Part shown: positions 8,266 to 63,106 of the stretch, one piece after another
Layout: every line of letters starts with the position of its first letter
How positions within the stretch are numbered: position 1 is the first letter of the stretch
Position numbers and translations under genes: made by a program
Notes under the pieces: generated by a model
Database searches by the model: none
Seen by the model: the letters and a program-made list of their open reading frames with translations, nothing else
Told to the model about the DNA's origin: nothing
NCBI GenBank assembly: GCA_965263355.1
Contig: CBDHHL010000056.1
Coordinates: 864,001-928,000, forward strand
DNA: 64,000 nt
Direction of reading: 5' to 3'
Source of the DNA: Leptolyngbyaceae cyanobacterium
GTDB lineage: Bacteria > Cyanobacteriota > Cyanobacteriia > Phormidesmidales > Phormidesmidaceae

Positions 8266-8294
8266 GCATCACTAACTCAAGCAGAAATCTAGAC

Positions 8295-9182: not shown

Positions 9183-9233
9183 TGATTCAATAATCGAGGC
9201 TTTTTACGATCGCTAACCGAAAGGGATCAGTGC

Positions 9234-9338: not shown

Positions 9339-9363
9339 TTGGCATCTCCTATCAATGCATTAT

Positions 9364-9957: not shown

Positions 9958-10030
9958 GCGCTGACTAGTCAGTTCGCGATCAGAATTAGCAGTTGTATTC
10001 GCTAAGTCTATAGCATTTATTCAGGCGCAG

Positions 10031-15658: not shown

Positions 15659-15768
15659 AATTTTTTACCTCCTAAAAAACGTGAGTTGAATCTGAATCAG
15701 ATTGCGTGATTAAGTAAAGTCAGTTGTAAATCAATGTAGAATTCTGGCCGAAAACATGCTCATCTAAA

Positions 15769-16641: not shown

Positions 16642-16737
16642 ATCAGTAGATTTCCATCTTTATAAAAAATTACGGCTTTTCTAAGCTTGGGTGTGTAAGG
16701 GCATGCTTGCAAGGAGTTAAAAACATTTGAATCAATA

Positions 16738-18072: not shown

Positions 18073-18240
18073 AATTTCCTTAAACTAAGAGCAAAGAGTG
18101 AATACGTCCTCATGCTCATTTTCCCTAACTTATCTAACGTCACCTAATAGTCAGCAACTACAAATCAGCATTCATAATGATTGAGCAATTTTCCTGTCAG
18201 GGATATACCTAATTCAAGATTCCTCATAACTATTCAGCCT

Positions 18241-20202: not shown

Positions 20203-20359
20203 TTTTTACGCATCAGTAATGGTGAAGTTTATAAATTATAGATTTCTTATCACTAAACTTAGTTGAAAAAACTTCAATATATTGTAGCCCTGAGCACGAT
20301 ATTTTCTGTCTCCATCCCTAATTAACATGCATTTTTATCAACCTGAGAATAAGTGCAAC

Positions 20360-42600: not shown

Positions 42601-45485
42601 TAGAGAGCAGGCGCAATTGTCTGGGTTTGACGTCCACCACCATAGGTTTTGAGGGCGGGGCGAGAATGGTCGGTGGGTAATTCGAGGACCGGTACACCAT
42701 GGGCGAATTGACTGACCCAATACTCTCGACTGCGGGCCATGGATTCGGTTTGGGACTGGGCGGTCTGGGCCTGAATATACTCAGAAAACTGCATCACAGG
42801 CGGCAGCGCTGGAGTTTCACCCTGCAGTGTGGACCGATACAGACTGCACAGCTCTTGTAGCAGCAGACCAATGGACCAACCATCCAAGACGATGTGGTGA
42901 CCACTGAGGACTAAGATATGGTGGTCTTCCGCCAGTTTCAACCCATAGACACGAAACAGGGGGCCTTGAGGCAAGTCATAGGGGGTGGCACTATCCTGAC
43001 GATACCAGGTGGCCAACTGGGCGGCTTGAGCATCCGTAGACAGGCCGCTAAAGTCAACCAGTGCCATGGTTACCGGTTGCGATGGTTCAATCTGTTGTGT
43101 TCGGGTATCAGTATGGATAACCGTGCGCAGGGCATCGTGGCGATGGTACAAGATGGCTAAACACTGATTGAGGCAGTCAATATCTAGTCGTCCTTTGAGG
43201 CGAAGACTGAGACTCATGCCATAGGCCAGGGCACCTTCTTCACTGAGTTCTGACAAGACGGCCAACTGTTGCTGCGCCTCAGTCAGGGGCAACGATACCA
43301 CTGCAGACGATCCCGAAGATGGTTGACTATCACCCAACGCCTCTGACGCTCTCAATGACGCAAGGGTTGTTAAAAAACCTGCCTGTTTTAGTTCAGCAAT
43401 ACTTTCCTGAACCGCTTGAAACACATATTCAATATCTTCATCCGTATGGGCTGTGGAGATAAAACAACTCCGCCCCTCCCAAACATAAACACCTTTATGG
43501 ATCAGGTGATAATAGAACAAATCTGGATTTTGCTTAATGATGAACCGGAAAAGTGAACCAAAGTGAACAACGTCAATCGGGACCTGATGCTCAGCACATA
43601 ATCTATTCAACCGATTGACCAACTGTTCAGTGCGCTGGTTGAGTTCACTCTGTAGGTCCGGTCCGGCGTCTTGCAAATGCTTTAACACTGCTCGCGAAGC
43701 CGCCAACCCTAATGCATGTTTGTTGAAGGTTCCCCTGAAGAATGTGCGGAGTGCTTTCGGGTAAGAATCATCGCCATAGTCCCAAGTGCCCCCATCAATG
43801 GCGTCCATAAACCGGGATTTGCCAGCGATCGCAGCACCTGGCAAGCCCCCAACTAGAACTTTGCCATAGGTGGCGATGTCCGCCTGGACACCGAAATAGG
43901 CCTGGGCACCACCAGGATGAATGCGAAACCCTGTGACAATCTCATCAAAAATAAGTGCAATTCCACAGTCCTGGGTAAGTTGACGCAAATCATGTAGAAA
44001 CTGCCGTGGTTGCAATGCTGGATTTAGCCCCTGCACAGGTTCCACTAACACAGCCGCCAATTCAGCGTGATGGTCACGTATTTCTGCCAATGCCGATTTA
44101 TCAGCATACTCCAGCACCAAAACATTACGCACCGCATCTGGGTCAATCCCCTGGGCAATGGGGATGGTGTCTGATGTATTCTCCAGGCGCTGTGCTAGAA
44201 CACCGTCAGAATGCCCGTGGTATGCATTGCGAAAAACAGCTATTTTTTGACGACCGGTGGCAGTGCGAGCTAAACGGACGGCCACCATAACAGATTCCGT
44301 CCCTGACTGGCAGAAGGTAGCGCGTTCGGCTCCCACTAACTCACATAGACGCTGCGATACCTCTTGAGCCAACTGGGCTTGAGGACCAACGGAAATACCT
44401 AGCTTGGCCTGGGACTCGACGGCCTCGTTAATAAAAGGAACATTATGGCCAAAGAGGTGAACCCCAAATCCCATGGCCAAGTCCACATATTTATTGCCAT
44501 CTAAATCCCAGAAGTTAGCGGCTTGATAGCGTTGAGCCACAATGGGATACACCATGTCTTTAGTAGACAGTCGGAGTGATGATTGACCCGCTTGTTTGAA
44601 ATTACCCAGAACAATATGCCGACCTTTCTGAGTTGTTAAGCGAAACCCAGCTGCGGATCGGGAATCCGCTAGCACAGGTCGCGACAGTTGTGCCTGCTGC
44701 CGAGATTTTTGAGTGCGCTGAGTATACTGAGCAACAAAGGTATTGAAATAGGCTTGCTGAGTTGGATTTAAGTCTAAGGGAGGTTGGGAGGCAGCTACTT
44801 TTGAGGTATGCCCCCTTGCGGGTACAGATTGTTCAGTAACTGGGCTTTCGGGTGAGGTCTTTTGCCCATTTTGTAACAAACTACTGACGCCTGACTGCTT
44901 TCCTGAGGCGTTAATACCAGTTTCCCTGGCCTGACTTTTCAACGCCTCAAGTTGTTCAGCCATAAGCTGAGACATGGCTTGAAGCTGTTGATTCATGATG
45001 CGTTCTAGCGAGGTCTGGGAGATCTGAGTCAATCTCGTTGACCGTTCGCCACTCCCTGGGTGAATGTCCTTAACTGGATTAGCTCCGGGGACAACATTTT
45101 CTGGGGACGGCAGCGGGACAGATGGGTTCGATAGATCTGGGTGGTCAGTGGAGGAAAAAGTCTCTGGTGCCTGGGCATCATGGGGAGATTTCTCTGCGAG
45201 ATAGGATGCGATCGCATCCAGAGTCGTCAATTCCCCAAACAGCTGATGAAGCGATAGCCTAACCCCAAACGTCTGATCGATCTGGTTAACAGCTTCCGTA
45301 AACATTAACGAATCCGCCCCCATTTCTAGGAGAGGTGTTTGCAGATCTATTTCACCTACAGGCAGTTGCAGAATCCTACCAACAAGAGTGCGCAGGCTTT
45401 CAATCACCTGCTCTTTCCGCTGGTGATGTCCATTCTGGGACCCAGACTGTTCAATGTGATGGGGGGATAATCCGTTTTGGGTCAT
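33624..45485 (-). CDS. Hybrid protein: ACP-class III aminotransferase-C-A(Pro-like)-T-C-A(Asn)-T-C-A(iso-Asp/Glu-like)-T
   Basis: ACP MGADSL; AMT YHGHSD, FDEIVTGFR and TYGK; three C domains (HHIVLDG, HHIIADG, HHAIFDG); three GGHSL T domains. Hand-read codes are DAHIITHVVK, DATKVGEVGK and DARHFSLMVK. Confidence 0.95.
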   Translation of the reverse strand: MTQNGLSPHHIEQSGSQNGHHQRKEQVIESLRTLVGRILQLPVGEIDLQTPLLEMGADSLMFTEAVNQIDQTFGVRLSLHQLFGELTTLDAIASYLAEKSPHDAQAPETFSSTDHPDLSNPSVPLPSPENVVPGANPVKDIHPGSGERSTRLTQISQTSLERIMNQQLQAMSQLMAEQLEALKSQARETGINASGKQSGVSSLLQNGQKTSPESPVTEQSVPARGHTSKVAASQPPLDLNPTQQAYFNTFVAQYTQRTQKSRQQAQLSRPVLADSRSAAGFRLTTQKGRHIVLGNFKQAGQSSLRLSTKDMVYPIVAQRYQAANFWDLDGNKYVDLAMGFGVHLFGHNVPFINEAVESQAKLGISVGPQAQLAQEVSQRLCELVGAERATFCQSGTESVMVAVRLARTATGRQKIAVFRNAYHGHSDGVLAQRLENTSDTIPIAQGIDPDAVRNVLVLEYADKSALAEIRDHHAELAAVLVEPVQGLNPALQPRQFLHDLRQLTQDCGIALIFDEIVTGFRIHPGGAQAYFGVQADIATYGKVLVGGLPGAAIAGKSRFMDAIDGGTWDYGDDSYPKALRTFFRGTFNKHALGLAASRAVLKHLQDAGPDLQSELNQRTEQLVNRLNRLCAEHQVPIDVVHFGSLFRFIIKQNPDLFYYHLIHKGVYVWEGRSCFISTAHTDEDIEYVFQAVQESIAELKQAGFLTTLASLRASEALGDSQPSSGSSAVVSLPLTEAQQQLAVLSELSEEGALAYGMSLSLRLKGRLDIDCLNQCLAILYHRHDALRTVIHTDTRTQQIEPSQPVTMALVDFSGLSTDAQAAQLATWYRQDSATPYDLPQGPLFRVYGLKLAEDHHILVLSGHHIVLDGWSIGLLLQELCSLYRSTLQGETPALPPVMQFSEYIQAQTAQSQTESMARSREYWVSQFAHGVPVLELPTDHSRPALKTYGGGRQTQTIAPALYGPLQQLARQQNCTLFMVLLAVYLLLLHRLSGQTEIIVGVPSSGRSMPDSGGMVGYGAHLLPIYSHYRADESFGEYLARVRYTLISAYEHQQYPFAELLSQLQLPPDLSRTPLVSATFNLEAPVQLAPLPELTAELSARPIHYAPYELHCNLIDLGDRLVLDGDYNSDLYEGTTLERWLDHFQTLLRGVVSQPTASISRLPILTAEERHQLLEGWNDTTVDYGPEHCVHRLMEAQVERSPDAVAVVFEAESLTYRQLNERANQLARYLQNQGVKPESRVGICVDRSLEMVVGVLGILKAGGAYVPLDPNYPNERLSHMLQDSGVELLLTQQSLLQSLPSSTVSTICLDTQWPLMSVESTDNVTSAVQADNLLYVIYTSGSTGVPKGIALAHRALTNLIHWHLQTMDVGVGILQFASLSFDASFHEMFAAWCSGGTLFLIPEDHRLDLDKLVHFLAENPIQKAILPVVLWQKLAEVYGDRPLLFSKLTEAIATGEQLQVTPQMIDLFSQLDHCVFHNHYGPSETHVVTSYILPESPAQWSSNPPIGYPIANTQIYLLDSQQQPVPIGVAGELHIGGVSLARGYLNRPKLTNEKFISNPFGPGRLYKTGDLARYLQDGNIEYLGRIDHQVKLRGFRIELGEIEAALSHHPEVNQVVVIAREDQPGDKRLVAYIVNSDTQLEPVDLRQLLKTKLPDYMIPSAFVQLAALPLTPNGKVDRKALPAPDPNLNSIETLVTPQSPSQELIADLFSSILKVHPVGIHQSFFELGGHSLLATQLISRLRQTFELEIPLRILFEAPTIFELDQCVQQLRQENSGLTLPKVTPLPREGQHLPLSWAQERLWFLNQLEEGTAATYNMPAALHLTGSLNVDALEQAFKTLVERHEILRTRFPAVAGLPVQEIVPNQTVAVKREEWFALNSDEWQKHIQRAIQEEARAPFDLAAGPLLRVKLLQHSTEEALLLVTLHHIIADGWSISVLIREVATAYQAVLAGQDLGIAPLPVQYGDYVLWQQLWLQGNVLEQQLAYWRKQLASPPNLLQLPTDYPRPALQSHQGACQDFHFSAQLTQQLEKLSQSSGVTLFMTLLAGFGTLLYRYSGQSDILIGSPIANRNRAEIEPLIGFFTNTLVLRLQLENDLSFAEVLRQVREITLDSYAHQEAPFEQIVEALQPERSLSHAPLFQVMFVFQNTPEEVLELPGLALTSLAPDTLTTKFDLTLSMQLTESGLVGSWEYSTDLFEAKTIARLSGHLQQLLESVVAAPEMSVSRLPLLTPQERNQLLVEWNDTTVEYPHTQCIHQLFETQVKKTPDAVAVTLGSQHLTYRELNQRANQLAHYLKQLGVKPETLVGLYLERSLDMMVGLLGILKAGGAYVPLDPNYPKQRLLYMLQDAAAPVLLTQETLMAGLPSHDSQVVCLGRDESKIAACSTEPVACDVHPDNLAYVIYTSGSTGQPKGVEINHQGLTNYLYWCVTTYFNSKGIGALVHSSIGFDATITGLFSPLLVGQTVFLLSADSDIEALATALQSSERLSLVKLTPAHLKLLAFLLPAEKLAHQTQAFVIGGEALTNDIISPWLTHAPETRLINEYGPTETVVGCCTYDVSPNDHLTTSIPIGRPIANTQLYILDAQLQPVPIGVVGELYIGGDGVARGYRNRPELTAQKFIPNPFGSGRLYKTGDLTRYLVDGKIEFLGRLDHQVKIRGFRIELGEIESILSSHPKVQQVIVIARDDNQADPQLVAYVVSQDNQLTSGELRDFLTGQLPTYMLPSAFVQLETLPLTPNGKVDRKALPVPTFEPNLDGDFMAPRTPTEESIATIFASVLGLDSISIHSSFFELGGHSLLATQAIAKLRDTFQLELPLRELFEAPTVAELDQRIQQALTGQSRRAIAPMTAVPRDADIPLPLSWSQERLWFLEQLDGSNAAYSIPVALKITGQIDIVALESALSGVIARHESLRTTFPMVEGKPIQAIAPISDLSIPIEDLSNSSAEQHPEILQQSINAEAQAPFSLAKGPLLRLRLLRLTPQSNVLLLTLHHAIFDGWSSEILIREFVTLYGAYQQRQISPLVPLVNQYADYAYWQRHVLSDTLDSQLSYWKQHLSGDLPVLRLPTDSTNLKKINNEGARCSCLLSVSLSQKLKALSQRENVTLFMALLAAFNLLLSRQTDQTDIIIGTPIAGRQHPGTTDLIGFFINTLPIRVDLSGITTFQDLLSHVREVTLAAYSNQDVPFEQLVKILQPERSLERHPIFDVMLNLMQPTATALEMEGLEFEMLEMPELESKFWITLYVYEPRDDESTGLTLELVYRRSLFSAERMEIFLDQFKALLEQIVLLPDQPIQNYSLLTPKTKSLLPDPVLPLEEPQFSPITDLIRSWSNQQPEHIAITQAEQSWTYQQLFNYAEHVAENLIKAGVKTGDVVAVYGNRCFELIVHIVGILLSGSVLLTLDPNLPTQRLQLMVQAANVGYLIALDSESPKDWLSASIKLLAGSDIKPVDKRSPQENHSVDDIHRSLPHVHGEQPAYIFFTSGSTGMPKGVMGSHKGIAHFVDWQRETFQVGPGDRVAQLIRLSFDALLRDIFLPLTSGATLCLPPDDEVSSEHLLRWLENEKISVIHTVPTVAQYWISNAPNDVTLSTLRATFFSGEPLTDTLIGQWKQAFPGSGKLINLYGATETTMVKSYYPIPEQVRPGIQSVGWPLPQTQNLVLRAVNQPCGIGEIGEIVVRTPFRTFGYINTSATSNPCFVPNPFRSDQEDLLYYTGDQGRYLPDGSLEVLDRLDGQLKIRGTRVQPGEIESRLHQHPDVGQTVIVGRINPDGNQVLVAYIVPKTPQGIDRDQLNTYLLKQLPAHLIPSVYMELTSLPLTASGKVDRNALPDPEFTIRRPLSVPPRNPTEISLANIMGDILKQDSIDIHDSFFALGGHSLQATQVVARISQTFGLELSLRTFFESPTVAALAQIVADHQQGKKNTESTTSNLIPKRRRRKIQRSADGTLIVPDNLKEELWGKDKP

Positions 45486-45671: not shown

Positions 45672-48600
45672 CTAATTGTGCATAGACGGGCGGAGTGGAG
45701 ATGAAGTAGGTGGAAACGATTCAGATGTGGGAAATGCGGGCGATTCTTCGGAACTGTCCTGATATACAGATTGACTTTTCAATACATCTAACTGTTGAGA
45801 TATAAGCTGGGACATTGTCTGGATTTGCTGATTAATCAAGCGTTCCAGTGGGGTTTCTAACGCTTGATCTGGTGGGGCTATCCAACCGTTATTGCTTAAG
45901 CCAACACTCTCTGTCAGTTGTAGCTCACCAATTGAATTCTCCTGAGGGAGTTTGGACGTATCCTCTTGAGGGATTGTCTGACCGCTGATGGAGGATGGGG
46001 ACGAAACTGTAGTTTCTGGAGATTGCTCAGATTGATTTAGGGCTCCATTTGCTGGTACTGCGTCGACTGATTCTGGCAGGTCAAACCAGTAAGGCTTCCT
46101 TTGAAAAGGATATGTGGGCAGAGTAACTTGATTGCGTTGGGGATAGTCTCGCTCAAAGCTTACCCAATCAATGGTAAATCCCTTCAAGTACAACTCACTC
46201 AAACTCGTGAGCATCTGTTGCCAATCGCTATATCCAGGCCTCAGAGAAGGTAGCCATGTGCCTTTATCTACTGACAGACATTGCCGTCCCATGCCTAACA
46301 ACGTTGGCTTTGGGCCACATTCAACCAAAACCTCACAGCCTTCCTGGGATAGCGTTTCCATCCCAGCTGCAAAGTTAACGGGGGCAAGAATGTGACGACA
46401 CCAATACTCAGGGGTAGCAATTTCGCTGGTAATTGCCTGACCAGTCACACAGGAAATTAACTTGGTCTGGGGCAAGCTGTAGGTTACTTGTCGAGCTACA
46501 GCTTCAAAATTCGCCAGCATCGGTTGCATTAGAACAGAATGAAATGCATGGGACACTTGTAGATATTTAGTTGTAATCCCATCCCCTTCCAGCTGAGTCA
46601 CAACCGTCTGAACAGCAAAGTCAGAGCCCGCAATAACAGTACTGGCCGGACCATTGATGGCGGCCACTGAAACCTGATGAGACACCCCTTGACCATCAAT
46701 CACTGATTTGGCCTGCTCGACAGAGCATCTCAAGGAGACCATCACTCCCCCAGCCGGTAGGGCCTGCATTAATCGAGCCCGCTCCGTGACTAACTTGAGA
46801 CCATCTTCCAGACTAAACACCCCAGCTACACAAGCGGCCACATATTCTCCTAAACTATGCCCCATGACGACCTTGGGTTTAATTCCCCAGGCAATCCAAA
46901 GTTGGGCTAGGGCATATTCCAAAGCGAAAAGAGCCGACTGAACATCAGTTGCCTGATCCAGCCCTTTAACTTCGCTGTCTGATGGTTCAATCTCCGAGTT
47001 AGGATACAAAATCTCGATCAGGGGCTGTTTCAGCTCAGAGCGCAAAATAGCATCACAGTTATCCAGAATCTCTCGAAATAAAGGTTGGGTTTCGTAGAGT
47101 TGACGCCCCATATTAACGGAGTGGTCTCCCTGGCCACTAAAGAGAAAAGCTACTTTAGGGAAGAGCCCTGGTGTTGCAACATTAAACTTTGGCTCTAATT
47201 CCAATGCTTCAGAAGTGGTTAAAAGGTCTAGCTGAGCCCCTAAATCACTCAAATTTGAGGCAATCAGAGCAAATCGATATTTAAATGGAGTACGACCTGT
47301 GTTGGCGCTATAACAAATGTCAGCCAGATCACTATCCTGACAATGTTCCAGGTGCTGACGATAGCGATTAGCCAATGCTTTCAAGGCAGCTTCACTCTTA
47401 GCAGACAGTGTCAGAAGATGTAGAGAGCGCTCAGGCAGAGCACTGGATTCTGGGGAGGGCGATGTGTTGACTGATTGAGGCGCTTCCTGCACGATAACGT
47501 GGGCGTTAGTACCGGTAGCACCAAAGGAATTCACGACGCCTATGCGACTACCGGACTGCACTTCCCAAGGAACAACCGTATCGGGAACAACAACAGAAAC
47601 ATCCTGCCAATTGAAATGTTCTGTAGGTGTCTTTAGATGAAGATGAGGGGCAATCTCACGGTGTTGCAACTGCAATATCACCCGCATGACCCCAGCTACC
47701 CCTGCGGCTGATTCCACATGGCTAATATTGGTTTTGGCGGAGCTAATGTAGAGGGGGCTCTCAGGAGAATGACCGGGCCCATACACTTTTGCCAAGGACC
47801 GTAATTCGATGGGGTCTCCCAGGGGCGTACCGGTACCATGGGCCTCGACATAGCTAATGTCCGCTGGGTCAAGCTTAGCCTGCTTTAGGGCTTGACGCAT
47901 CACGGCCTGTTGTGAAATACCGCTGGGTACAGTCAGACCGCTACTTGGACCATCTTGATTAACCGCAGAACCACGGATAGTAGCCAGAATACGGTCACCA
48001 TTGGCTTGGGCATCGGAAAGCCGCTTCAGCACCAAAATTCCACAGCCTTCACCTCGACCAATGCCATCCGCAACCGCATCAAAGGTTTTACAACGCCCGT
48101 CAAAAGACAGCATTTTAGCTTTAGATGTGGCAATCATGCTATCGGGCAACAAGATCAGATTCACCCCTCCTGCCAGGGCCATTTCGCATTCCTGTTGTCG
48201 CAAGCTCTGGCAGGCCTGATGAATGGCGACCAAAGATGATGAACAAGCTGTATCAATGGCCATGGCAGGCCCCGTAAAACCAAAGGTATAGGAAATACGA
48301 CCAGCGGCGGCATAGGAGGGAGAGCCAGTAACACCATGAATTTCAAACTGGGGATTGGCAACACTTGGAGATTGGGTCTGCAGTTCCGCTTGAGCCTGTT
48401 TACCAATAAGACCATAGTCATCAAGGGTGATGCCCACAAAGACACCTGTGGAACTTCCCTGATCGCGCTCTACCGGATAGCCTGCATTTTCTAGTGCCTC
48501 CCACGCCACCTCCAGCAACAGACGATGCTGTGGATCAATACTGACAGCTTCACGGGGAGAGATGCCAAAAAATTGAGGGTCAAACTGCTCAACCTGCTCT

Positions 48601-48902
48601 AGAAAACCACCGCTGCGGCTGTACATTTTGCCCGGCACGTCGGGATCGGGATCGTAGTATTTATCAATGTCCCATCGAGTCGCAGGAATTTCAGTAACCC
48701 CATCTCCCCCTTGGCGCAATAGTTGCCAAAACGATGCCGGATTGTCTACACCACCTGGAAAACGGCAACCCATACCAACAATGGCAATGGGCTCACGTTT
48801 GGCGTACTGTAGACGCTCAATCTTAGCTTCTAGGGTCTCAATTAATAAAAATGAGCGCTGTAGAGGAGAGAGCTGTTCGGCCTGCACAGAATCGTTTGCC
48901 AT
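45672..48902 (-). CDS. Type I PKS KS-AT didomain (malonyl-type AT) with no ACP
   Basis: N-terminal docking helix; KS DTACSSS/HGTGT/SHVESAAG; AT GHSLG and [13 protein letters not shown] followed by a low-complexity tail. Confidence 0.95.
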   Translation of the reverse strand: MANDSVQAEQLSPLQRSFLLIETLEAKIERLQYAKREPIAIVGMGCRFPGGVDNPASFWQLLRQGGDGVTEIPATRWDIDKYYDPDPDVPGKMYSRSGGFLEQVEQFDPQFFGISPREAVSIDPQHRLLLEVAWEALENAGYPVERDQGSSTGVFVGITLDDYGLIGKQAQAELQTQSPSVANPQFEIHGVTGSPSYAAAGRISYTFGFTGPAMAIDTACSSSLVAIHQACQSLRQQECEMALAGGVNLILLPDSMIATSKAKMLSFDGRCKTFDAVADGIGRGEGCGILVLKRLSDAQANGDRILATIRGSAVNQDGPSSGLTVPSGISQQAVMRQALKQAKLDPADISYVEAHGTGTPLGDPIELRSLAKVYGPGHSPESPLYISSAKTNISHVESAAGVAGVMRVILQLQHREIAPHLHLKTPTEHFNWQDVSVVVPDTVVPWEVQSGSRIGVVNSFGATGTNAHVIVQEAPQSVNTSPSPESSALPERSLHLLTLSAKSEAALKALANRYRQHLEHCQDSDLADICYSANTGRTPFKYRFALIASNLSDLGAQLDLLTTSEALELEPKFNVATPGLFPKVAFLFSGQGDHSVNMGRQLYETQPLFREILDNCDAILRSELKQPLIEILYPNSEIEPSDSEVKGLDQATDVQSALFALEYALAQLWIAWGIKPKVVMGHSLGEYVAACVAGVFSLEDGLKLVTERARLMQALPAGGVMVSLRCSVEQAKSVIDGQGVSHQVSVAAINGPASTVIAGSDFAVQTVVTQLEGDGITTKYLQVSHAFHSVLMQPMLANFEAVARQVTYSLPQTKLISCVTGQAITSEIATPEYWCRHILAPVNFAAGMETLSQEGCEVLVECGPKPTLLGMGRQCLSVDKGTWLPSLRPGYSDWQQMLTSLSELYLKGFTIDWVSFERDYPQRNQVTLPTYPFQRKPYWFDLPESVDAVPANGALNQSEQSPETTVSSPSSISGQTIPQEDTSKLPQENSIGELQLTESVGLSNNGWIAPPDQALETPLERLINQQIQTMSQLISQQLDVLKSQSVYQDSSEESPAFPTSESFPPTSSPLRPSMHN

Positions 48903-48903
48903 G

Positions 48904-51900
48904 CTAATCTCCCTCCAGCGCTTTTGCTAATTTTTTACTAATCAAATCATCTAAACTCTCTTCTGATAATGTCCGCAGCTGATCAGAAAGTTCGGGTATT
49001 TCAGATGGGGATTCCACATCAACGCTAGAGACATCAAAATCGGCATGGGAAAGATCAGGATTATTAGCGGCTCCCCATTCTAAAACGTCGACCATAATAT
49101 ACTTGGCCAAACTTAAAATATTAGGATGTTCAAAAATGAGCACAGTCGGCAAGGCTATTGCTAAACTGGCTTCTAACTTGTTTTTGAGCGCTACCGCCAT
49201 AAGGGAATCCATACCCATATCAAAGAATCCGCGATGGGGATCGATCAACGATGCGCCTTCCCGGTGACCAAGTGCTTGCGCAACAGTCCGTTGTAAATAA
49301 AGCACCACCTGCTCTTGGCGCTCATCCATCTGGGGGATTTTCTCTAGCTCTTGCCACAATTCATCTTGCTGCCCCAAATTGATTTGATTATCCCCATGGC
49401 CGATTTCAGTGAGGAGACGCTTACCGGTAGTACTCTCATACAGAGGCTTGAAGATCGACCAGTCCATCTCAGCTACAATCAGGTTGGTTACCGGACCTGA
49501 TGTTGAGCTATTTTGACGATCCGGCAGAATAAATCCGCCTGCTACATCAAGTAAATTCTCAGGTGTGGTGAGATGCAAGCCAATTTGAGTTGTATACTTT
49601 TCACCTTCAGGCGATGCCAACGCCATGCCGCCACCCGCTAAGGCCCCCACATTAACCGTCAGACCAGGTAAATCCAGCTGTTGCCGATAAGTAGCAAAGA
49701 TATCGAGGAAGTAATTGGCAGCGGCATAATGTCCCAACCCCTGGGAACCAAAGATGGGAGACATGGAAGATGTGCAGAAGAAGAAATTCAGATCCAAATC
49801 GAGGGTCAGCTGATGCAGATTCCAGGTGCCCCAAACCTTAGGACGCAGCATTGCTGTTAAATCAGTCTCTGTAATCTCTGGAATGGTCTTTTGCTGTGTT
49901 GCCCCTGCAATGTGAAAAATCCCTTTAATGGGTGGTGCGATCGCTTGCACTGTCTCAATGGCTTCTGCCATCGCCGCTGCATCCGCGACATCAGCCTGCA
50001 AGACCTGAACATTGACACCGTTCTGTTGTAATGTTTCGATCACCTGCAAGGCTCGACCAGAAGGGGCTCGACGACCAGTTAATGCCAGGGACTTAACGCC
50101 CTTACTAGCTAGCCACTGGGCACTTCCCAGGCCGAAGTGTCCCAATCCGCCGGTAATAAGATAGGTCGCATTGGTGCTGAAGGTAATGGCTTCGGGGGGT
50201 ACCTGCGTTTTTGCACTACGAACCAATCGCACGATGTAGCGCTGGCCATTGCGGAACACAATCTGAGCGTCAGCGCTAGGGCTGGAGGGTCTGAGGAGCT
50301 GATGTTGCAGTTGCTGAACGCTCCCAGAGAGCGGAGCCGTACTGTCAAGATCGATGAGTCCACCCCAGAACTGAGGAAATTCAGTGGCAGCAACTCGGCC
50401 TAACCCCCACATGGGCGCTTGGGCAATTGAGCGTGGTGTTATTTCTGCAGCGGTCTCCCCACCGACCGTTTGCACGTCTTCTGTGATAATCCAAAGCTTA
50501 GGAGGAGACGTTGTTGCCAGGTTGGCATTGGGGGTGACTGTGGTGACCGATTGGACTAGATGTAACAGACTGGTGACGGTCAATGCCTGGTCAGCTTGTA
50601 GGCTCGCCAGGGTAGTTTTCTGGCTGGGGGTAACGTCTAAACTCCAGAGGTGAATAATCCCCTTGCAAGGGGGTTTATCCGCCGACAACAATTGTTTGAG
50701 GAGATTATCCATCGCCCTAGGATCGGTTGGGTCCAGGCTGTGAATAGAGGAACGCTCTAGCCCAATGTCAGCAGGCGTGTCGATGATTTCGGATGTTTCA
50801 GCGCCTTGACAATATACCAACTCACAGACATGTCCCTGGTTCTGAAGCTGGGTAGCAAGGGTGGTGCCAAGGTTTTTGCGATCGCAAAAAATAATCCAAC
50901 GCCCCGTTGCCTCTTCCTTTACTCTGTCGTCTGTGGCACCAATATCGTCCAGGGGAGCCAGCTGCCATACCAACTCATACAACCAGTCATGGCCTAACGG
51001 TGGGGTTTGGTCAGAGTCGGCCATGGGGCTAGTCCGTTGCATCTGTAGCCCCAACACTTCAACCGTCACCTCGCCAGCAGCGTTGAAGATACGCACATCC
51101 CCCTGAATCGTATCTTGATTCTCTCCACCGAGCTGTTTTAAGACAGCATGGCTCCACCCTTCTCTCCCCAAAGGTCCATGCACCTCAAAACTATCAATTC
51201 TTGTGGGCAAATAAAGAGAATCTGGCTCCGAGAACCCGTTATCAAGCCCATCATTACCGTCTGGGGGACTACTGCCTCCTAGCGGGGTAAACAATGTAGC
51301 CCCCAACACCTGATGACAAGCATCCAGCACAGGTGCATAGACCTCCAGGGCATTGGTATTTGCCACGATCCCCGCTGGCGTTTTTATCTCAGCCAAAACC
51401 TCCTGGTGCCCCAGCCAAAATTGCTGGATGCCCCGGTAGGTTTCTCCTAGCTGCAGACCGTGCTTTGCCAGGAGCTGATAGAAGTCTGCGCCACTCTGAC
51501 GAGCTTGACAACGGGCACGTACCTCTTCGAGGCTAGCTTTGGCAATACTGGAGTTGCCTACCGACGTAGCGCCTTGACTGGCCGACGACCTGACCAGATT
51601 GTCATAGGCTCCACTGTCTGCCACTGATACCCGTTGGACATCCACCTGACGATACCGTTCTTTTAATTCGTTCAGGTAAGGTAAATGCTCAATCACCGCT
51701 TGCTTACTGGGTCCAAAGTCCAGCAAACAGGCAATCTCATCAACCCCAATCTGATCGAGATCCCTCACCAGCTCCAAACAACTCTCGGGTGTTCCAATTA
51801 GCCCCCTGGAGGTGGCAAAGCGCTCGTACAGGAAATTGACAAATGTATCGAGATCGCGCTCCGACAATGTGGCGAAGTCAATATCTTGTCCTCGACTCTG

Positions 51901-52689
51901 GGCCAACCCCCGCAGTAAGCCAATATTAGATTTGAGATAGTCACAGTAGGGCTTACGGGCCTGTTCGCAGACTGTCGCAAATTCCTCACCGACAAAGGTA
52001 TGTAACATCAGGGAAACAATCCCCGCTTCGGGATCATGACCATGTTTGGCCCGTGCCTGCCGATAGAGGGCAATCTTTTCCGCCAGGGGTTCAATACCCT
52101 GATCGAGTAAATGGGTCAGTAAATTAGCACCGATTTTCCCGGCGTTAGCAAAGGTTTGGGGATTACTCGCTGCGGTGATCCAAATGGGCAGTTGGGGCTG
52201 AATTGGTGTGGGATAAATGCGCACCGTTGTGGGTTGTCCCTTGCCATTGGTAACAGCAATGCTCTCCCCTTGCCAGAGTTGATTTAAGGTGATGATGTTT
52301 TCAAACAACAGCTGATGCCGCTGTTCATAAACCTCTGGACACCAGGCAAAGTCATCGGGGTTCCAGCCCGAGGCCAGGGAAATACCCACCCGACCATTAG
52401 ACAAATTGTCCACCATAGCCCAAGCTTCTGCCAGGGCCAGGGGATGGTGTAATGGCATAACAACGCTGCCTGCCTGCAGCCGAATACGCTCGGTTACCTG
52501 GGACAACGCCGCATTTAAGACCGCTGGATTGGGGTATAAACTCCCAAACTGGGTAAAGTGACGCTCCGGGGTCCAAATGCTGGAAAAGCCGTGCTCATCA
52601 CCAAACTTAGCGCTGTCGATTACCAGACCGTATTTCTCGTCAGCCAGGGCATCTTCAGTGCTGGCAAAAAACATAAGACCAAATTTCAT
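48904..52689 (-). CDS. PKS protein: luciferase-like flavin monooxygenase (MupA/Atu3671 type)-DH(C-half)-KR-ACP
   Basis: WTPERHF...YPNP and GWNPDDF (LLM); FYQ...LDACHQ...LPTRI (second DH hotdog); TGGLGHFG...YAAAN (KR); GMDSL (ACP). Confidence 0.92.
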   Translation of the reverse strand: MKFGLMFFASTEDALADEKYGLVIDSAKFGDEHGFSSIWTPERHFTQFGSLYPNPAVLNAALSQVTERIRLQAGSVVMPLHHPLALAEAWAMVDNLSNGRVGISLASGWNPDDFAWCPEVYEQRHQLLFENIITLNQLWQGESIAVTNGKGQPTTVRIYPTPIQPQLPIWITAASNPQTFANAGKIGANLLTHLLDQGIEPLAEKIALYRQARAKHGHDPEAGIVSLMLHTFVGEEFATVCEQARKPYCDYLKSNIGLLRGLAQSRGQDIDFATLSERDLDTFVNFLYERFATSRGLIGTPESCLELVRDLDQIGVDEIACLLDFGPSKQAVIEHLPYLNELKERYRQVDVQRVSVADSGAYDNLVRSSASQGATSVGNSSIAKASLEEVRARCQARQSGADFYQLLAKHGLQLGETYRGIQQFWLGHQEVLAEIKTPAGIVANTNALEVYAPVLDACHQVLGATLFTPLGGSSPPDGNDGLDNGFSEPDSLYLPTRIDSFEVHGPLGREGWSHAVLKQLGGENQDTIQGDVRIFNAAGEVTVEVLGLQMQRTSPMADSDQTPPLGHDWLYELVWQLAPLDDIGATDDRVKEEATGRWIIFCDRKNLGTTLATQLQNQGHVCELVYCQGAETSEIIDTPADIGLERSSIHSLDPTDPRAMDNLLKQLLSADKPPCKGIIHLWSLDVTPSQKTTLASLQADQALTVTSLLHLVQSVTTVTPNANLATTSPPKLWIITEDVQTVGGETAAEITPRSIAQAPMWGLGRVAATEFPQFWGGLIDLDSTAPLSGSVQQLQHQLLRPSSPSADAQIVFRNGQRYIVRLVRSAKTQVPPEAITFSTNATYLITGGLGHFGLGSAQWLASKGVKSLALTGRRAPSGRALQVIETLQQNGVNVQVLQADVADAAAMAEAIETVQAIAPPIKGIFHIAGATQQKTIPEITETDLTAMLRPKVWGTWNLHQLTLDLDLNFFFCTSSMSPIFGSQGLGHYAAANYFLDIFATYRQQLDLPGLTVNVGALAGGGMALASPEGEKYTTQIGLHLTTPENLLDVAGGFILPDRQNSSTSGPVTNLIVAEMDWSIFKPLYESTTGKRLLTEIGHGDNQINLGQQDELWQELEKIPQMDERQEQVVLYLQRTVAQALGHREGASLIDPHRGFFDMGMDSLMAVALKNKLEASLAIALPTVLIFEHPNILSLAKYIMVDVLEWGAANNPDLSHADFDVSSVDVESPSEIPELSDQLRTLSEESLDDLISKKLAKALEGD

Positions 52690-52693
52690 GTCC

Positions 52694-55600
52694 CTATTTT
52701 CCCCCCTTTACTGCTGTCATCCGTCCGGCAGAGCCATTCCTGGTAGATCTCATTGGCATCTCTCCTGATGATTTAGGGGGACCGGCACCGATGGACTTGC
52801 GCCGACTGACATTGGCATCGGCATACAGCGTCCAATCCTCTGCTGCATCGCCTTGAGTCAGTCGGCAGCTATAGATCTGCAGCTGGCATTGATCGGCTGC
52901 TCGGGGGGTCAAGACCACCTGTACCCGTTGATCCCCCTGGCTGGATAAAAACAGGGGATAGTAAAGCTTGAGGTTGGTAATTTGATTCCAGGGTTCCTGA
53001 AACGCCGCCTGGGTCGCCTCCAGGGCAATTTGCAAATAACCAGTATGGGGCATAATCACCGTGTGCCAGACCTGATGATCCTTAAGCCAGGTGAGATAGG
53101 TGTCATCGACAACAACATCCCAAACATACGCATCAGCCCAGGGAGCCGGAGGAGACAAGCGGTACCCTAAAATTGGGTGGCGCTCTCCAGAATAGAGTGA
53201 TGATTTCCTAATGTCTGGGTCAGATATTGAACTGGCTGCAGAATCACACCAATAGCGCTGTCGCTGGAACGGATAGGTAGGTAGGGCAATTTTTTGACGT
53301 TGGGGTGCATCCGGATAAACACCGTGCCAATTGATTTTCACACCTCTTATGTACAGCTCACCCAGGCTCGTGAGCATTTGTTGCCAGTCATTTTGTCTAG
53401 GTCTTAGGCTAGGCAACCAGGCTTTTCCATCTGCCGGTAAAAACTGTTGCCCCATGCCCAACAAAATCGGCTTTGGTCCACATTCAAGAAAGATATCACA
53501 GGTTTGATGTAGTGACTTGATGCCTGCTGCAAAATTAACGGGAGAAAGGATGTGCTGGCACCAATAGTCAGGGCTGGCAACAGCATCTGTTGCCAGCTGC
53601 CCCGTGATATTGGAAACAAACTTACGTTGGGGCAGAGCGTAACTGACCTGTTGAGCCACTGCCTTAAACTCCGCTAACATGGGTTGCATTAACGAAGAGT
53701 GGAAGGCGTGGGAGACCTGTAGTATTTTATGCTTCACGCCATCCTTATCTAACTGGGTGACAATACCCTGAACAGCAGACTCCGGACCAGAGATAACAGT
53801 ACTGCTGGGGCCATTGATAGCTGCGATCGCAACCGTCTCCTCTCCAGACAATGCAATGGCTGCCCTAACTCGCTCCACTGAGGCCATCAGGGAAACCATC
53901 CCCCCCCCTGATGGTAACTGTTGCATCAATCGACCGCGGGCGGCAATCAGCTTCAGTCCATCCTCCAGACTAAAGACGCCTGCGGCCCAGGCAGCCACAT
54001 ACTCGCCAACACTATGCCCCATAAAGACTGTAGGCTCGATTCCCCATGACTCCCACAGTTGATACAACGCATACTCTAGAGAAAACAATGCAGGCTGCGC
54101 ATAGGCCGTTTGGTGAATCAGCGTTGCCGTATTAGATGAGCCATTACTTGAACTATCACTGGGGTGTTGAGGATACAACACTTGCAACAATGGGATGTCC
54201 AGCCAGGCATCTAGAATCTCACTACACCGATCCAATGCCTGACGAAAAACCGACTGTGTAGCATAGAGTCGTTTACCCATATCTACATACTGGGAACCTT
54301 GTCCCGTAAATAGACAGGCAATTTGGAGAGATTTCTGCAGATTGACACCCCCATTGCTTTTGAGATAGCCAACTGCCTCTTCCTGACAAACAACTGCTTC
54401 GAGTTGCTGAGTTAGCTTCTGAACCGAATCATGCACCAAGGCTAATCGATGATCAAAATGGGACCGCCCCGTATTGGCACTGAAACAAAGATCGACAACA
54501 GAGACGTCAGGATGGTGAAGCAAAAACTCACGATATCGCTGCGCTAAGGCCCGCAATGCACCCTCATCTTTAGCAGAAATTGTCAATAGATGAAGGTCAT
54601 GTTGTAGCACAGAGGCCCCCAAGCTGTTTGTCTGACAATCAGGGCCAGAGCCCGCAAGCTTGGCAATACCAGCTAGTCCAGACAAGACCACATGGGCATT
54701 GGTACCGCCAAACCCAAAGGAACTTATCCCCGCGACCCGACCTGTTTCAAGGGGCCAGTCTGTCAGGGCTGTGGGAATCTTTAAAGGCGTATTCTCTAAC
54801 TTGATATAAGGATTTAGTTGCTTGAAGTGTAAATGGGGGGGAATCCGACCATAGTGCAAAGATAAGACCACTTTAATCAACCCTGCAATACCCGCTGCAG
54901 CTTCTAAATGGCCAATATTGGTTTTGAGAGAGGCAATCCAACAAGCCGAATCCTGCTCTCTCTCCTGCATCAGTACGGTTTTAAGCGCATTCATCTCAAT
55001 GGGATCTCCCAGGGATGTACCGGTGCCGTGTGCCTCTACATAGCTCACCTGGGAAGGTTCTACACTCGCATTGTTAAGTGCCTGACGAATCACATCCTGC
55101 TGGGCGAGGCCATTGGGAGCTGTTAGACCATTACTACAGCCATCCTGGTTAATGGCTGAGCCTAAAATAACCCCGAAAATAGAATCGTTATCTGCGATCG
55201 CGTCTGCCAGACGCTTGAGCACTACCATTCCACACCCTTCCCCTCGCACATAGCCATTGGCATCCGCGTCAAAGGCCTTACAACGGCCATCAGGAGCCAT
55301 CATCTGGGCCAGAGAAAAGGTGGTTGTAAGCTGATGCGTCAGCATTAGATTAACGCCTCCCACAAGGGCCAGGGAACATTCCTCCTGTCGTAGACTTTGA
55401 CAGGCCTGGTGAACCGCCACCAGGGAAGAGGAACAGGCAGTATCGATGGCCAAACTAGGACCCCGAAAATCAAAGGCATAGGAAAGGCGATTGGCTGCAA
55501 TACTCAGGGCATTGCCGGTGCCAACATAGGCATTAAGTTGACTCAAATCATTGAGCTGCAGTTGAGCATAATCTGACGTACTAATGCCGACAAACACCCC

Positions 55601-58105
55601 TGTTTGACTACCTGCCAGATCGGCTGGGGCCAAATTCGCATTTTCTAAAGCTTCCCAGCTCACTTCTAAAAGCAGCCGCTGCTGTGGATCTAAGCTGGTA
55701 GCCTCGCGGGGAGAAATACTGAAGAACTCTGCATCAAACTGATCAACATCACTCAAGAATCCTCCCCATCGACTGGTATTGAGTCCAGCAAGTGCACTGA
55801 CATTCCAACGCTCATCGGGCACTTGAGTAATGGCATCCTGCCCAGTTTGTAGCAATTCCCAGAATGCCTCCGGAGTGGGCGCCCCTGGAAAGCGACAGCC
55901 AACACCAATGATGGCAATCATGTCTGGATCGACCTGAGGGGAACCCAACCCATTTGATGCAGGGGAAGAGGAGGGCACTTGATTTGCCTGGGCTGGGGAG
56001 GACACTGAATCACCAGACAAATATTGCGTCAAATTGGCCAGGGTTGGATAGTCGTAAAGCAATGTAGGGGAAATCTCTTGCCCTAGCCAATCTTGCAACT
56101 GCCCCGATAATCCCACCGCTACCGCAGAACTGAGCCCATAGTGGGCCAAGGGTTCATAAATATCAATCTCATGGGGAGCCACCTGCAATTGTGCCGCCAC
56201 CTGAGCAATTAACCAAGCCTGAATCGTTCCTGCATCGGGAAAATCAAGCACTTTAACGGGCTGCTTTTCCACCTTTGGTAAAGGAACTCGGCTTGTTTCA
56301 CCCAGCTGCCAACTCGCAACAGAATTCAAGCCATCGTTGGCAAATTCAGCTTGACATGTTCGTCGCCTCACCTTGCCGCTGGATGTTTTCGGCAAACTAC
56401 CCGGCTTTAGCAGTTGAACTGCATATAGGGGTAAATCATGGTACTCAGATACAGCCCTGCGCATCTGGCAAAAAATCTCATCAGGAGCCAGTTTGCGCAA
56501 ATAGCGACGCTCCACTTCATGAACCACCACCAGCTGTTCTTGTCCTTCAATTTCAAGTCCAAAAGCGGCCCCACCACCCGCTCGCAGGGCCGAATGACTG
56601 CGCTCAATGGTCAATTCAATATCCTGGGGGTAGTGATTTCGTCCCTGGATAATAATAAGATCCTTAATCCGTCCAGTGACAAAGAGTTCTTTATCTCGAA
56701 AAAAACCTAAATCACCTGTTCGCAAAAATGGTCCTTCTCCGGTGTCTGCAGTAAAGGCTTGAAAGGTCTCTCTTGTCTCCTGAGGGCGTTGCCAATACCC
56801 CTGGGCAACATTGCCACCTGCCACCCAAATTTCACCTACCTGCTCAGGCAAACAGCGGGTTAAATCTTCAGGATTAACAATAATAATCTCTTGCTCTAAC
56901 CAGGTTTGCCCACATCCAACAATCCCTTTACTATAAAGCTGTTTAACAGCTTGATTTTCATCGGCTACAACTACTTGGTTCTGACTTAACGCATCCTCCT
57001 GAACCTCGAAGATCACGGGTGCTTGTGCCTTTAATCCTCCCGAAACCAACAAACTGGTTTCTGCCATACCATAACAAGGATAAAAGGATTGCCAATGAAA
57101 CCCACAGGACTCAAAAGTAGCTGAAAACCTCCGTAAGGTGTCTTCCCGTACGGGCTCTGCGCCACTATATGCTACATCCCAAGAACTCAAGTCTAGGCTC
57201 GCTCGTTGTTCAGCAGTAGTTCTCTGAATACACAACTCATAGGCAAAATTAGGGGCACCACTGGTGGTGGCACGATAGTGGGAAATAGCCTGCAACCACC
57301 GCAACGGTTTTTGTAAAAATGCAACCGGTGGCATTAGAGCACAAGGAATACCTAAATAAAGAGGCTGCAGAACATTACCAATCAATCCCATATCATGATG
57401 TAGGGGAAGCCAACCGACAAAAATAGTCTGATCGGTATGCCCAAAGGCAGCCTCAATCATGCGTTCGTTGTACATCAAATTGGCATGGGTCAGCATGACG
57501 CCTTTTGGAGTACCGGTTGACCCAGATGTGTACTGCAGGAATGCCAATGTTTTTGCAGTGATACCGGCATCTTGCCAGGGGAACACCTGCTCGGTGAGAA
57601 GATCCTTATCAGTCACCAACCATTGAACAGGAGAAGAACACCCAGGAGACACTAAATGCAACTGGAGTTGCGCCAATAACTTGGTGGTTGTAAGGACTAC
57701 ACTAGCATCAGCATCGGCAACAATGGCCTGCAGTCGGATTGCATTCCGGTTAGCCCGAGGAGGATATGCAGGCACAGCAACCAAGCCTGCATAGAGACAA
57801 CCAAAAAAGGCCGCTATAAATTCAAGACTTGACGGATAAACCAGGAGTGCGCGCTCCCCTGGAGTGCAGGTCTGCCGAAGTTGAGCAGCAATGACACGAG
57901 CCTGACAATCCAGCTCTAGATAAGTTAAACGACCCGATTCAGACTCCCCATCTTGGAGAAAAATATAAGCAGTTTGGTGCGGTTGATGCTGGGCTCGATA
58001 GCGCAACAGATCTATCAATGTATCGGAACAAGCTGGCCTGCTCGAACTACATTCCTCATCTAGATAACTCTTGCCTGAATTCGCCCTCATTGATATCTTC
58101 ACCAA
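52694..58105 (-). CDS. Starter PKS: FAAL-ACP-KS-AT-DH(N-half)
   Basis: [41 protein letters not shown] and PKTSSGK; ACP YGLSS; KS DTACSSS; AT GHSVG/HAFHS; HPILG...DHQV...P first DH hotdog. Confidence 0.95.
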
Positions 58106-59203
58106 TAAAAATTTTCACGAAGCCTGGTCAAGCCAAATACTCAATAAACCCTTCAATTAAAGTGTTATACCCCAACACTACGTCAAAAAACAGGGCACAC
58201 TTCTTATCTCAAATCATTTCAGAAAAGAGAAACACGCGTCTAGAAATATCACCAGACAATCACAGCAGCCAAAGAATTCCTACAGAATGCTATATCCAGG
58301 AGAATACAGCATTAATACACTTTCAATCAACTGCCCAGAACACACTTCGAGCAAAACATTTAATACCCCTACAACTACCCCAATACCTGAGCAGCCTAGG
58401 ACAGAACATTAGGGACTCTAATACATAACTAGGGACTCTAATACATAATTAATGTCATAATTCGATAACTGCAGAAACCTTACCCAAGGGCTCGACAGTA
58501 ATAACTATTATTTTTAAGTCCTGCTCTGCCAAATTCTATCAAGAATTACATGACTTTGCCTCCTAAATTTCATCATGATGTCTAATACATTCGCTCTTAT
58601 TACAAGCTACTCATTGAATCACAGCTTTGGGTACTGAATTACGACGTAACAGTGCTTGGAAAAGGCGAGTTTAGGCCATTAAAGCAGTGAAAAGTAAAAA
58701 ACTGGTAAAATCTGGCCCAAATTATCGTGGGATTACAAACAAATGTGCCCCTCACGGAGTTGCCTAAAGGGTATTCATATAATAAATTCATAGCCCTCAT
58801 CGTTAACGACACTCAATGTTCTTAGCCAGACTGCTTGTATTTTATTATTGTGGCAACCTGCACAGGTGTGATATTGTGGCTGCGGGTTCTGAGTTCGAGT
58901 AACGCAGCGTGTTCTCAAATACTATCTAATGAATGTGTTTTTTGGAGTGCATTGTATAAAGATGGTGTTGATTCAGGAAAATTTTGCTAGGCAGCTATTC
59001 TTTCTGTGAAATTGCTGTTCTGATTAAAGCGAGTTTTTTGGGCAACAAGTTCCTGTAAATGCCTTTTGTAGCTTTTGGGGTGTTTTCACAAGATGTTATT
59101 GAGTTTTCACTTGTGAAATCAGTTAATTAACTACCAATGTTGCGAAGCAGGCTGATTGAGTCTTTCGCTTGATTTTTGTGCATTTATTACGTAATTGGGC
59201 ACT
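58106..59203. promoter_or_regulatory. ~1.1-kb AT-rich divergent promoter/leader region of the BGC
   Basis: Lies between the divergent FAAL-PKS and GH13 genes; no credible CDS. Confidence 0.6.
58410..58448. repeat. 19-bp perfect tandem repeat, 20-bp period
   Basis: TAGGGACTCTAATACATAA at 58410-58428 and 58430-58448. Confidence 0.9.
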
Positions 59204-61309: not shown

Positions 61310-61618
61310 AATTAAAATATTGGTATTTAGAAATTAATTATATGACAAGCTTAAAATTAAAATATTGGTATTTCCCGAAAGCCACGGCCAGATTGTGGGT
61401 CTGGAAGTGCAGGCTGCCACAGCTGGCGGACAGCTAGCGTGGATAGATCAAACCCTACAAACTCAACTGCCGCCATTTGCCTTTGTGCTAGCGCAGTTGG
61501 ATATTCGCCACCGGCCTATTGTCAACGAACAATGGCATCCTTTTAAGGAGCAAAGTCGCTCGTCAAGCAGAAGTGGCTAATGCTTAAAATTAAAATATTG
61601 GTATTTAGAAATTAATTA
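61089..61618 (+). repeat. Tandem duplication (~250 bp, 283-bp period) of the GH13 3' end and downstream spacer
   Basis: 61089-61340 is repeated at 61372-61618; the second copy lacks CTCTG. This produces the spurious ORF 61365..61580. Confidence 0.95.
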
Positions 61619-61630
61619 AGCAAACATTAT

Positions 61631-63082: not shown

Positions 63083-63106
63083 TCATTTCATTTTAACTCA
63101 ACGAAC

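Follow-up and report, generated by a model that had tools for sequence, protein, structure and literature searches.

Why would a polyketide synthase (PKS) module keep a dehydratase (DH) that has been cut in two, both by an inserted oxygenase and by a gene boundary? This question is raised by two adjacent minus-strand genes in a 64,000-nucleotide stretch of DNA from a Leptolyngbyaceae cyanobacterium (GenBank assembly GCA_965263355.1, contig CBDHHL010000056.1, positions 864,001 to 928,000), hereafter called the window. The minus strand of the window carries a PKS-nonribosomal peptide synthetase (NRPS) cluster that starts with a fatty acyl-AMP ligase (FAAL), and the split DH lies in its first extension module. 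An earlier sequence-only reading of this DNA had proposed that the two halves of the DH reassemble as a docking scaffold that positions the oxygenase. The account that we consider probable is that this is a module with its own acyltransferase (a cis-AT module) in which a MupA-type luciferase-like flavin monooxygenase (LLM) sits between the two hotdog folds of the DH, that the DH halves re-pair as a non-catalytic clasp, and that a 2,3-dihydroxyacyl chain is handed on.

Results

A dehydratase divided between two proteins

The features of the split module are as follows, with the basis of each assignment in parentheses; KS, AT, KR and ACP denote ketosynthase, acyltransferase, ketoreductase and acyl carrier protein.

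52694..58105, minus strand: FAAL-ACP-KS-AT-DH(N half) protein, 1803 residues (Pfam domains and motif reading)
52805..53179, minus strand: first DH hotdog, from HPILG to ADANVS (Pfam, alignment to solved DHs, motif reading)
52687..52804, minus strand: C-terminal tail of about 35 residues and gene junction (stop codon 52694-52696, ATG 52687-52689)
51655..52689, minus strand: LLM of the MupA/Atu3671 family, residues 1-345 of the second protein (TIGR04020)
51535..51654, minus strand: linker, variable, about 40 residues, joining the LLM to the second hotdog (homologue comparison)
51034..51540, minus strand: second DH hotdog (Pfam, alignment to solved DHs, motif reading)
49636..50169, minus strand: catalytic subdomain of the KR (with Lys, Tyr and Asn; LDD and the A-type Trp absent)
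49096..49296, minus strand: ACP of the split module, GMDSL (Pfam and motif reading)

The upstream protein has an intact KS triad (DTACSSS, EAHGTG, KTNIGH) and intact malonyl-type AT motifs (GHSVG, HAFHS), and it ends in a Pfam PKS_DH_N match that spans model positions 1-102 of 103 (E 1.3e-19). The second protein, of 1261 residues (48904-52689, minus strand), matches Bac_luciferase (residues 1-318, E 1.3e-50), PS-DH (from residue 384, E 2.5e-25), KR and ACP models in that order. Its 345-residue LLM scores 490 bits against the full TIGR04020 model (positions 1-341 of 341; cut-off 244), and the closest solved structure to it is PuwE (6KET, E 2.8e-117). Among solved DHs, the N half from the window aligns only to the first hotdog (CurK 9-132, CurF, GphF 5-142) and the C half only to the second (CurJ 150-302, CurF, CurK 142-289). 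A whole DH is found in neither open reading frame; the halves are on different proteins, with the LLM between them. The profile scan that had been suggested as a check, with PKS_DH_N, PS-DH and Bac_luciferase, thus bears out the sequence-only reading as to the split and the LLM of about 345 residues. Its catalytic codons are also correct: the His codon in the first hotdog is CAT (53075-53077), and the Asp codon in the second is GAT (51322-51324), in the LDACHQ of YAPVLDACHQ. The His, the Asp and a Gln four residues beyond the Asp are all present in the window copy. Directly after the Pro of the first-hotdog motif, where Gly or Ala is usual, the window copy has a His.

The stop codon at 52694-52696 is separated by 4 nucleotides from the next ATG (52687-52689), which has a purine-rich stretch immediately 5' of it. 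Given the run of six G close to the upstream gene's stop codon, a base miscall at the junction had to be weighed. The junction is crossed without a gap and without differing letters in three assemblies (two samples from one study), two of which may be the source of the window DNA. The domain order and the gene break in the window are real.

Distribution of the split, fused and DH-free forms

The layout is widespread and not unique to the window. The best 120 matches of similar length, the window protein included, all start with LLM-DH(C), and the nearest homologue (P0003, 72% identical) is likewise a separate protein, of 1262 residues. A genome scan, as the sequence-only reading had suggested, found 35 split loci in cyanobacteria, Burkholderia, Fibrella and Acidobacteriota-type genomes. 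Upstream DNA was available for 34 of these, and in 34 of 34 a first hotdog lies at the end of the gene before, with locus L033 a marginal case. All 35 loci are split at the same point, and their junctions are unlike one another, ranging from 4-nucleotide overlaps to gaps of about 270 nucleotides. The relatives' upstream proteins end 1-23 residues past DH-N, and the second protein has no residues ahead of the LLM model.

Two further forms occur among the best 120 longer matches. DH-N, LLM and DH-C lie on one chain in 38 of them (a domain order confirmed by Pfam on 2 of the 38), with 11-76 residues preceding the LLM. Another 25, all single-chain (P0134, P0165, P0168 and 22 others), have the DH-free form KS-(AT)-LLM-KR. 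Long matches with an LLM inside a PKS module thus contain both DH halves in 38 cases, neither in 25 and one only in 0. Comparison of the fused, split and DH-free forms identifies the LLM as an insert placed where the two hotdogs meet, with the gene break at the start of the insert. We also built a midpoint-rooted FastTree phylogeny of 123 LLM domains, a sample picked for its similarity to the query: all 38 fused and all 25 DH-free forms, 40 of the 126 split ones and 20 of the 51 other LLMs. In this tree the split, fused and DH-free forms fall into one group (support 0.96), apart from the 20 others. Within it, fused and DH-free forms are interspersed with split forms, and the tree does not give the direction, fusion or fission.

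Several variants of the layout were seen in passing. The AT is also missing in 4 of the 25 DH-free modules. The fused modules P0156, P0164, P0166 and P0169 have acyl-CoA dehydrogenase domains in the same chain. At the loci of three close cyanobacterial relatives (L002, L003 and L004), the next protein bears a second LLM; in L002 (13650-21644) the order is KS-AT-ACP-LLM-KR-C-A, with the KR placed after the ACP.

Catalytic residues and selection in the interrupted DH

To judge residue loss, 21 intact DHs served as controls, 18 from five of the same genomes and 3 from earlier matches. Of the split DHs, 29 of 36 have the catalytic His and 111 of 126 the catalytic Asp; of the fused DHs, 24 of 38 have the His and 25 of 38 the Asp. 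Among the controls, the His is present in 21 of 21 and the Asp in 19 of the 20 that have letters at that site. For split and fused forms together, this amounts to 53 of 74 for the His and 136 of 164 for the Asp. A Gly or Ala follows the motif Pro in 18 of 21 controls, in 11 of 38 fused DHs and in a single one of 36 split DHs; a small residue at this position presumably matters for DH function. His and Asp together with Gln or His four residues on are kept at 10 of 35 split loci, in 18 of 38 fused DHs and in 16 of 21 controls. When the Burkholderia loci are collapsed to one and L033 is excluded, both His and Asp are present at 11 of 23 split loci. Fisher tests give p values of 0.005 and below, with related rows and controls picked by DH profile. 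One control, L037, is otherwise intact and has its second hotdog broken into two frames, by a frameshift or an assembly error.

Two marks of inactivity in the sequence-only reading describe the window correctly and do not carry over to the family. A B-type (LDD) KR is usually paired with an active DH, and the window KR indeed reads ATQQ at the LDD position; the missing LDD was rejected as a family mark, since LDD is present in 51 of 119 split homologues. The Gly of the first DH motif is indeed a His in the window, a change that we rejected as a sign of inactivity because Gly is found in only 12 of the 21 intact controls and is missing in 9; GphF DH1 has Asp at this position.

The ratio of nonsynonymous to synonymous substitution rates (dN/dS) was calculated for 13 pairs of homologues, and is 0.08-0.54 for DH-N, 0.10-0.50 for DH-C and 0.06-0.19 for the LLM. 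The linker between the LLM and DH-C evolves fast, with dN/dS of 0.30-1.96 (7 pairs computed). Purifying selection acts on both halves in 13 of 13 pairs, three of which carry the changes His-to-Tyr and Asp-to-Glu. Judged from these patterns, the interrupted DH looks like a pseudo-enzyme that is retained for its fold. The two changes occur jointly in the cyanobacterial lineage L005-L017 (e.g. L007, L012-L014 and L017), a natural dead-enzyme control.

Predicted re-pairing of the halves

A complex model of DH-N with LLM-DH(C), which had been put forward as a check on reassembly, scores 0.80, versus 0.00 for the best of 3 controls. The mark that we applied to this score is reached by 116 of 157 solved complexes and by 2 of 215 mismatched pairs. 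The model runs share at least 63% of contacts, with a partner pLDDT (predicted local distance difference test) of at least 77. Every confident contact runs from one hotdog to the other (residues 411-553 against 12-138); the LLM takes part in none. In the model, the interface includes His46 (first half) and Asp456 (second half). Since the halves of a split domain resemble solved DHs, the model may pass because of this likeness; it supports binding and does not show it. With this proviso, the modeling indicates that the halves likely re-pair into a double hotdog.

The ends of the two proteins bear on how they are joined. Because the LLM lies at the very start of the second protein and the relatives' upstream proteins end 1-23 residues past DH-N, there is no room for the usual helical docking domains. 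We infer that the hotdogs themselves are the joint between the two proteins. That all 25 DH-free modules are single-chain fits a joining role for the DH.

The proposed scaffold thus stands in part. Reassembly is supported by the complex model, by the joint presence or absence of the halves and by purifying selection. The positioning of the LLM is not: the model contains no confident contact between the LLM and the first hotdog, the linker evolves fast, and 25 LLM modules have no DH at all.

The remainder of the gene cluster

The genes that follow the split module, and the divergent genes on its other side, are listed here; C-A-T denotes a condensation-adenylation-thiolation module and MFS the major facilitator superfamily.

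45672..48902, minus strand: KS-AT of the second extension, catalytic motifs intact with Cys and both His (Pfam and motif reading)
33624..45485, minus strand: ACP, class III aminotransferase and three C-A-T modules (Pfam and A-domain reading)
32696..33511, minus strand: PhyH-family dioxygenase (Pfam)
31838..32632, minus strand: Asp/Glu racemase (Pfam)
21338..31807, minus strand: three C-A-T modules and thioesterase (Pfam and A-domain reading)
14246..21256, minus strand: probable tailoring and export genes, namely two JmjC/cupin_8 hydroxylases, an acyltransferase-3/SGNH protein, an MFS transporter and a beta-lactamase-fold protein
59195..64000, plus strand: alpha-amylase-family protein, second MFS transporter and a sulfotransferase truncated by the window edge

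The pocket residues of the A domains of both NRPS proteins (33624-45485 and 21338-31807) were read via motif anchors, and the specificity codes suggest Pro-like, Asn, Asp/Glu-like, Lys/Arg-like, Orn and Orn. To go by these domain assignments, the product of the cluster would be a cationic lipohexapeptide. A Pfam scan of the NRPS proteins showed no epimerase domain, and a Pfam scan of the 33624..45485 protein showed no second LLM. The free Asp/Glu racemase and the PhyH hydroxylase sit between the two NRPS genes. By position and strand, the genes at 14246..21256 presumably belong to the cluster; at this end of it, related JmjC/cupin_8 hydroxylases (15769-16641 and 20360-21256, minus strand) flank the acyltransferase-3/SGNH gene and the MFS transporter. 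The plus-strand genes at 59195-64000 are divergent from the cluster and may possibly have a tailoring role.

Discussion

Proposed function of the split module

We propose that the FAAL would load a fatty acid and that the KS-AT would add malonyl to place the extended chain on the ACP of the second protein. By analogy with MupA, the LLM, using O2 and FMNH2 from an outside reductase, would then hydroxylate C2 of the beta-ketoacyl-ACP, and the KR would subsequently reduce C3. The DH would carry out no dehydration; the rebuilt double hotdog would instead keep the KS-AT beside the KR-ACP at a junction where a conventional docking domain is absent. The next KS-AT (45672-48902) and the aminotransferase would turn the diol into a 3-amino-4,5-dihydroxy fatty acid, six NRPS modules would extend the acyl chain, and the thioesterase would release the product, probably as a cyclic lipopeptide. 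The sequence-only reading had arrived at the same fatty acid from alpha-hydroxylation plus ketoreduction, and its prediction gains from the presence of the same module in the clusters for cyanochelin B and for occidiofungin-type compounds, both of which retain their diols. The ketone that it had offered as the outcome of an active DH is unlikely, given that the catalytic residues are often lost and that both characterized products are diols.

Several observations weigh against this account. At the predicted interface, conservation is not clearly higher than elsewhere (p 0.055 and 0.72; 25 of 35 rows, 10 near-identical Burkholderia rows having been dropped). The 25 single-chain LLM modules without any DH indicate that the DH is dispensable for the chemistry. 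The window copy is itself among the 10 of 35 split loci that keep His, Asp and Gln, so that residual DH activity is possible in the window. The comparison of catalytic residues uses only 21 controls, chosen by DH profile, and homologues that are not independent. No flavin reductase was recognized among the window's open reading frames that were read or scanned, the scan not being exhaustive. Finally, a 2026 review assigns the occidiofungin steps otherwise and describes the PKS domains of OcfJ as 'thought to be inactive' (PMC13684122).

Four other explanations were weighed. The reassembled DH might not dehydrate and yet aid the chemistry, its His/Asp pocket enolizing or epimerizing the beta-ketoacyl group, or holding the chain for the oxygenase and setting the C2 stereocenter. 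Such a role would account for the retention of His in 53 of 74 and of Asp in 136 of 164 interrupted DHs, for the presence of both residues in the window, in the cyanochelin proteins CcsAB/CcsC and in the Burkholderia copies, and for a model that brings His46 and Asp456 into the interface. We nonetheless consider it unlikely, since whole lineages swap His for Tyr and Asp for Glu jointly with their halves still under selection, and 25 modules manage without a DH. A DH that is active outright, so that the 2,3-diol loses water to an enol and then a ketone, or so that dehydration comes first and the LLM acts on the alkene, is highly improbable. The window copy does keep His, Asp and Gln, and the model rebuilds a normal double hotdog; however, both characterized relatives yield undehydrated diols, even though the Burkholderia contaminans homologue P0051 has a B-type LDD KR, and C2 of cyanochelin B is quaternary, which makes elimination impossible there. 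The window itself has a KR without LDD and, after the motif Pro, a bulky His.

It is very unlikely that the halves are vestiges of an old DH that do not re-pair, with the proteins meeting via KS-ACP contacts, LLM dimers or other surfaces. DH-free forms exist, interface conservation is not clearly raised, and the model may owe its pass to familiarity with solved DHs, all of which vestiges would explain. They would not explain why dN/dS is well under 1 in both halves, why the halves are kept or lost jointly (38 both, 25 neither, 0 one) or why the split has been kept in cyanobacteria, Burkholderia, Fibrella and Acidobacteriota-type genomes alike. The gene boundary might instead be an assembly error or a programmed frameshift at the six-G run, the true protein being one chain as in the 38 fused homologues among the best 120 longer matches, with a homopolymer immediately before the stop. 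We regard this as scarcely credible and rejected it: there is no gap at this point in three assemblies from two samples, the break falls at one and the same point in 35 of 35 loci, whose junctions differ (4-nucleotide overlaps to gaps of about 270 nucleotides), and P0003, the nearest homologue at 72% identity, is a separate 1262-residue protein. The non-catalytic clasp is the explanation that we retain.

Significance

PKS subunits are known to be joined by small docking domains or by KS-DH contacts. A catalytic fold that is cut at its internal seam and reused as a joint would add a further mode of subunit joining. The literature that we searched, with most subscription journals and figures outside its coverage, holds no account of an oxygenase inserted in a DH or of docking by hotdog halves, and the architecture and the docking role appear to be undescribed. 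The chemistry, in contrast, is of a known kind, with MupA as precedent, and the module is already present in two characterized clusters. The broader proposition is that this is a widespread PKS junction, in which a DH that lost its function after an oxygenase was inserted has become a split-domain docking device whose hotdogs zip two proteins together and make the module diol-forming; we hold the case for it to be evenly balanced. If it is true, the layout would be a genome-mining marker for lipid chains with vicinal diols, and PKS engineering would gain a natural site for insertion and splitting. The opening steps of occidiofungin assembly would also be reassigned, with the OcfJ KS active with a trans AT and OcfI setting the C6 and C7 hydroxyl groups. 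The layout also reveals a point at which a module accommodates an inserted enzyme of 345 residues. The layout predicts a vicinal diol and accounts for the hydroxylation pattern of the two known products.

Comparison with known systems

The window shares its architecture, an upstream protein that ends in DH-N followed by LLM-DH(C)-(cMT)-KR-ACP (cMT, C-methyltransferase), with OcfJ/OcfI and CcsAB/CcsC. In the cyanochelin B cluster on plasmid 2 of Leptolyngbya sp. NIES-3755, CcsAB (BAU16016) is FAAL-ACP-KS-AT-DH(N), and after the break CcsC (BAU16015) reads LLM-DH(C)-cMT-KR-ACP. CcsC is identical to our match P0093, and is 48% identical to the window protein over LLM and DH-C. It differs from the window module in its cMT and in feeding a thiazoline siderophore, whereas the window module lacks a cMT and feeds a second extension with transamination. 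Cyanochelin B has a vicinal diol at C2/C3 of its acyl chain, a CH-OH beside a quaternary C(OH)CH3, i.e. a 2-methyl-2,3-diol (PMC12628792). The Fig. 1 legend and Fig. S2 text of that paper label FAAL, KS, AT, Ox, cMT and KR, and no DH (PMC12628792).

The occidiofungin/burkholdine cluster of the Burkholderia cepacia complex has the same split, with FAAL-ACP-KS-DH(N) in OcfJ and LLM-DH(C)-KR-ACP in OcfI. In our Burkholderia loci the ocfJ/ocfI-like pair is followed by KS-AT-KR-ACP-KS-AT-ACP-AMT (AMT, aminotransferase), and the window LLM is 63% identical to the ocfI-like domain of L035. We equate the ocfI-like genes with ocfI on the basis of organism, length (3324 bp, 1107 residues) and gene order rather than accession; ocfI is listed as a 3324-bp flavin-dependent monooxygenase gene (PMC9494966), a length with which a 1107-residue B. 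contaminans match agrees. Occidiofungin contains 3-amino-5,6,7-trihydroxystearic acid (PMC9792986, PMC8877233), and this product, one of the two known, needs its diol for antifungal activity (PMC9792986). In our mapping, a C12 starter and three extensions would fit this acid at each position, with the C7 hydroxyl set by the KR, the C6 hydroxyl by the LLM, the C5 hydroxyl by the next KR and the C3 amino group by the aminotransferase. All 13 OcfJ-like KS domains that we read keep Cys and both His. The ocfJ-like proteins (L020, L024-L032, L034 and L035, at about 5500-10004) have this full KS triad and no AT domain. Given this lack, malonyl must come from an AT in trans. The review cited above for OcfJ lists DH among its figure abbreviations (PMC13684122), and homologues of ocfI and ocfJ are required for the hemolytic activity of the product in a report that, in its available text, does not name their domains (PMC3442841). 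The OcfJ-like proteins differ from the window in lacking an AT, in a KR with LDD and in one extra reducing module, which leads to a triol in place of the 4,5-diol predicted for the window, and the peptide part differs as well.

The LLM itself belongs to the same subfamily (TIGR04020) as MupA of mupirocin and OocM of oocydin, which act beside a KR on beta-keto-ACP in trans-AT bimodules. MupA hydroxylates an ACP-bound beta-keto substrate and needs only an FMN reductase, an ACP and that substrate (PMC10952193). From this likeness, the window LLM would alpha-hydroxylate a beta-ketoacyl-ACP. MupA and OocM are free-standing at an ACP/KS0 junction, whereas the window LLM is fused into a cis-AT module, inside the DH fold, and the next KS has its triad intact; the window module works like a trans-AT alpha-hydroxylation bimodule, but is no member of that class. 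The monooxygenase domain of PuwE, the closest solved LLM, comes from another cyanobacterial FAAL-started beta-amino lipopeptide pathway, that of puwainaphycin, and has been proposed to install the 2-hydroxy group (PMC4219810). It lies between an aminotransferase and a condensation domain, giving a 3-amino-2-hydroxy acid, whereas the window's ACP-AMT-C protein has no such domain. A paper on nocuolin proved a false lead. As for the DH, each window hotdog is full length and aligns to its counterpart in the canonical DHs CurF, CurJ, CurK and GphF DH1. Those enzymes are single chains whose linker is short and whose His/Asp dyad is conserved, whereas the window family has a 345-residue insert, a gene break and an eroded active site.

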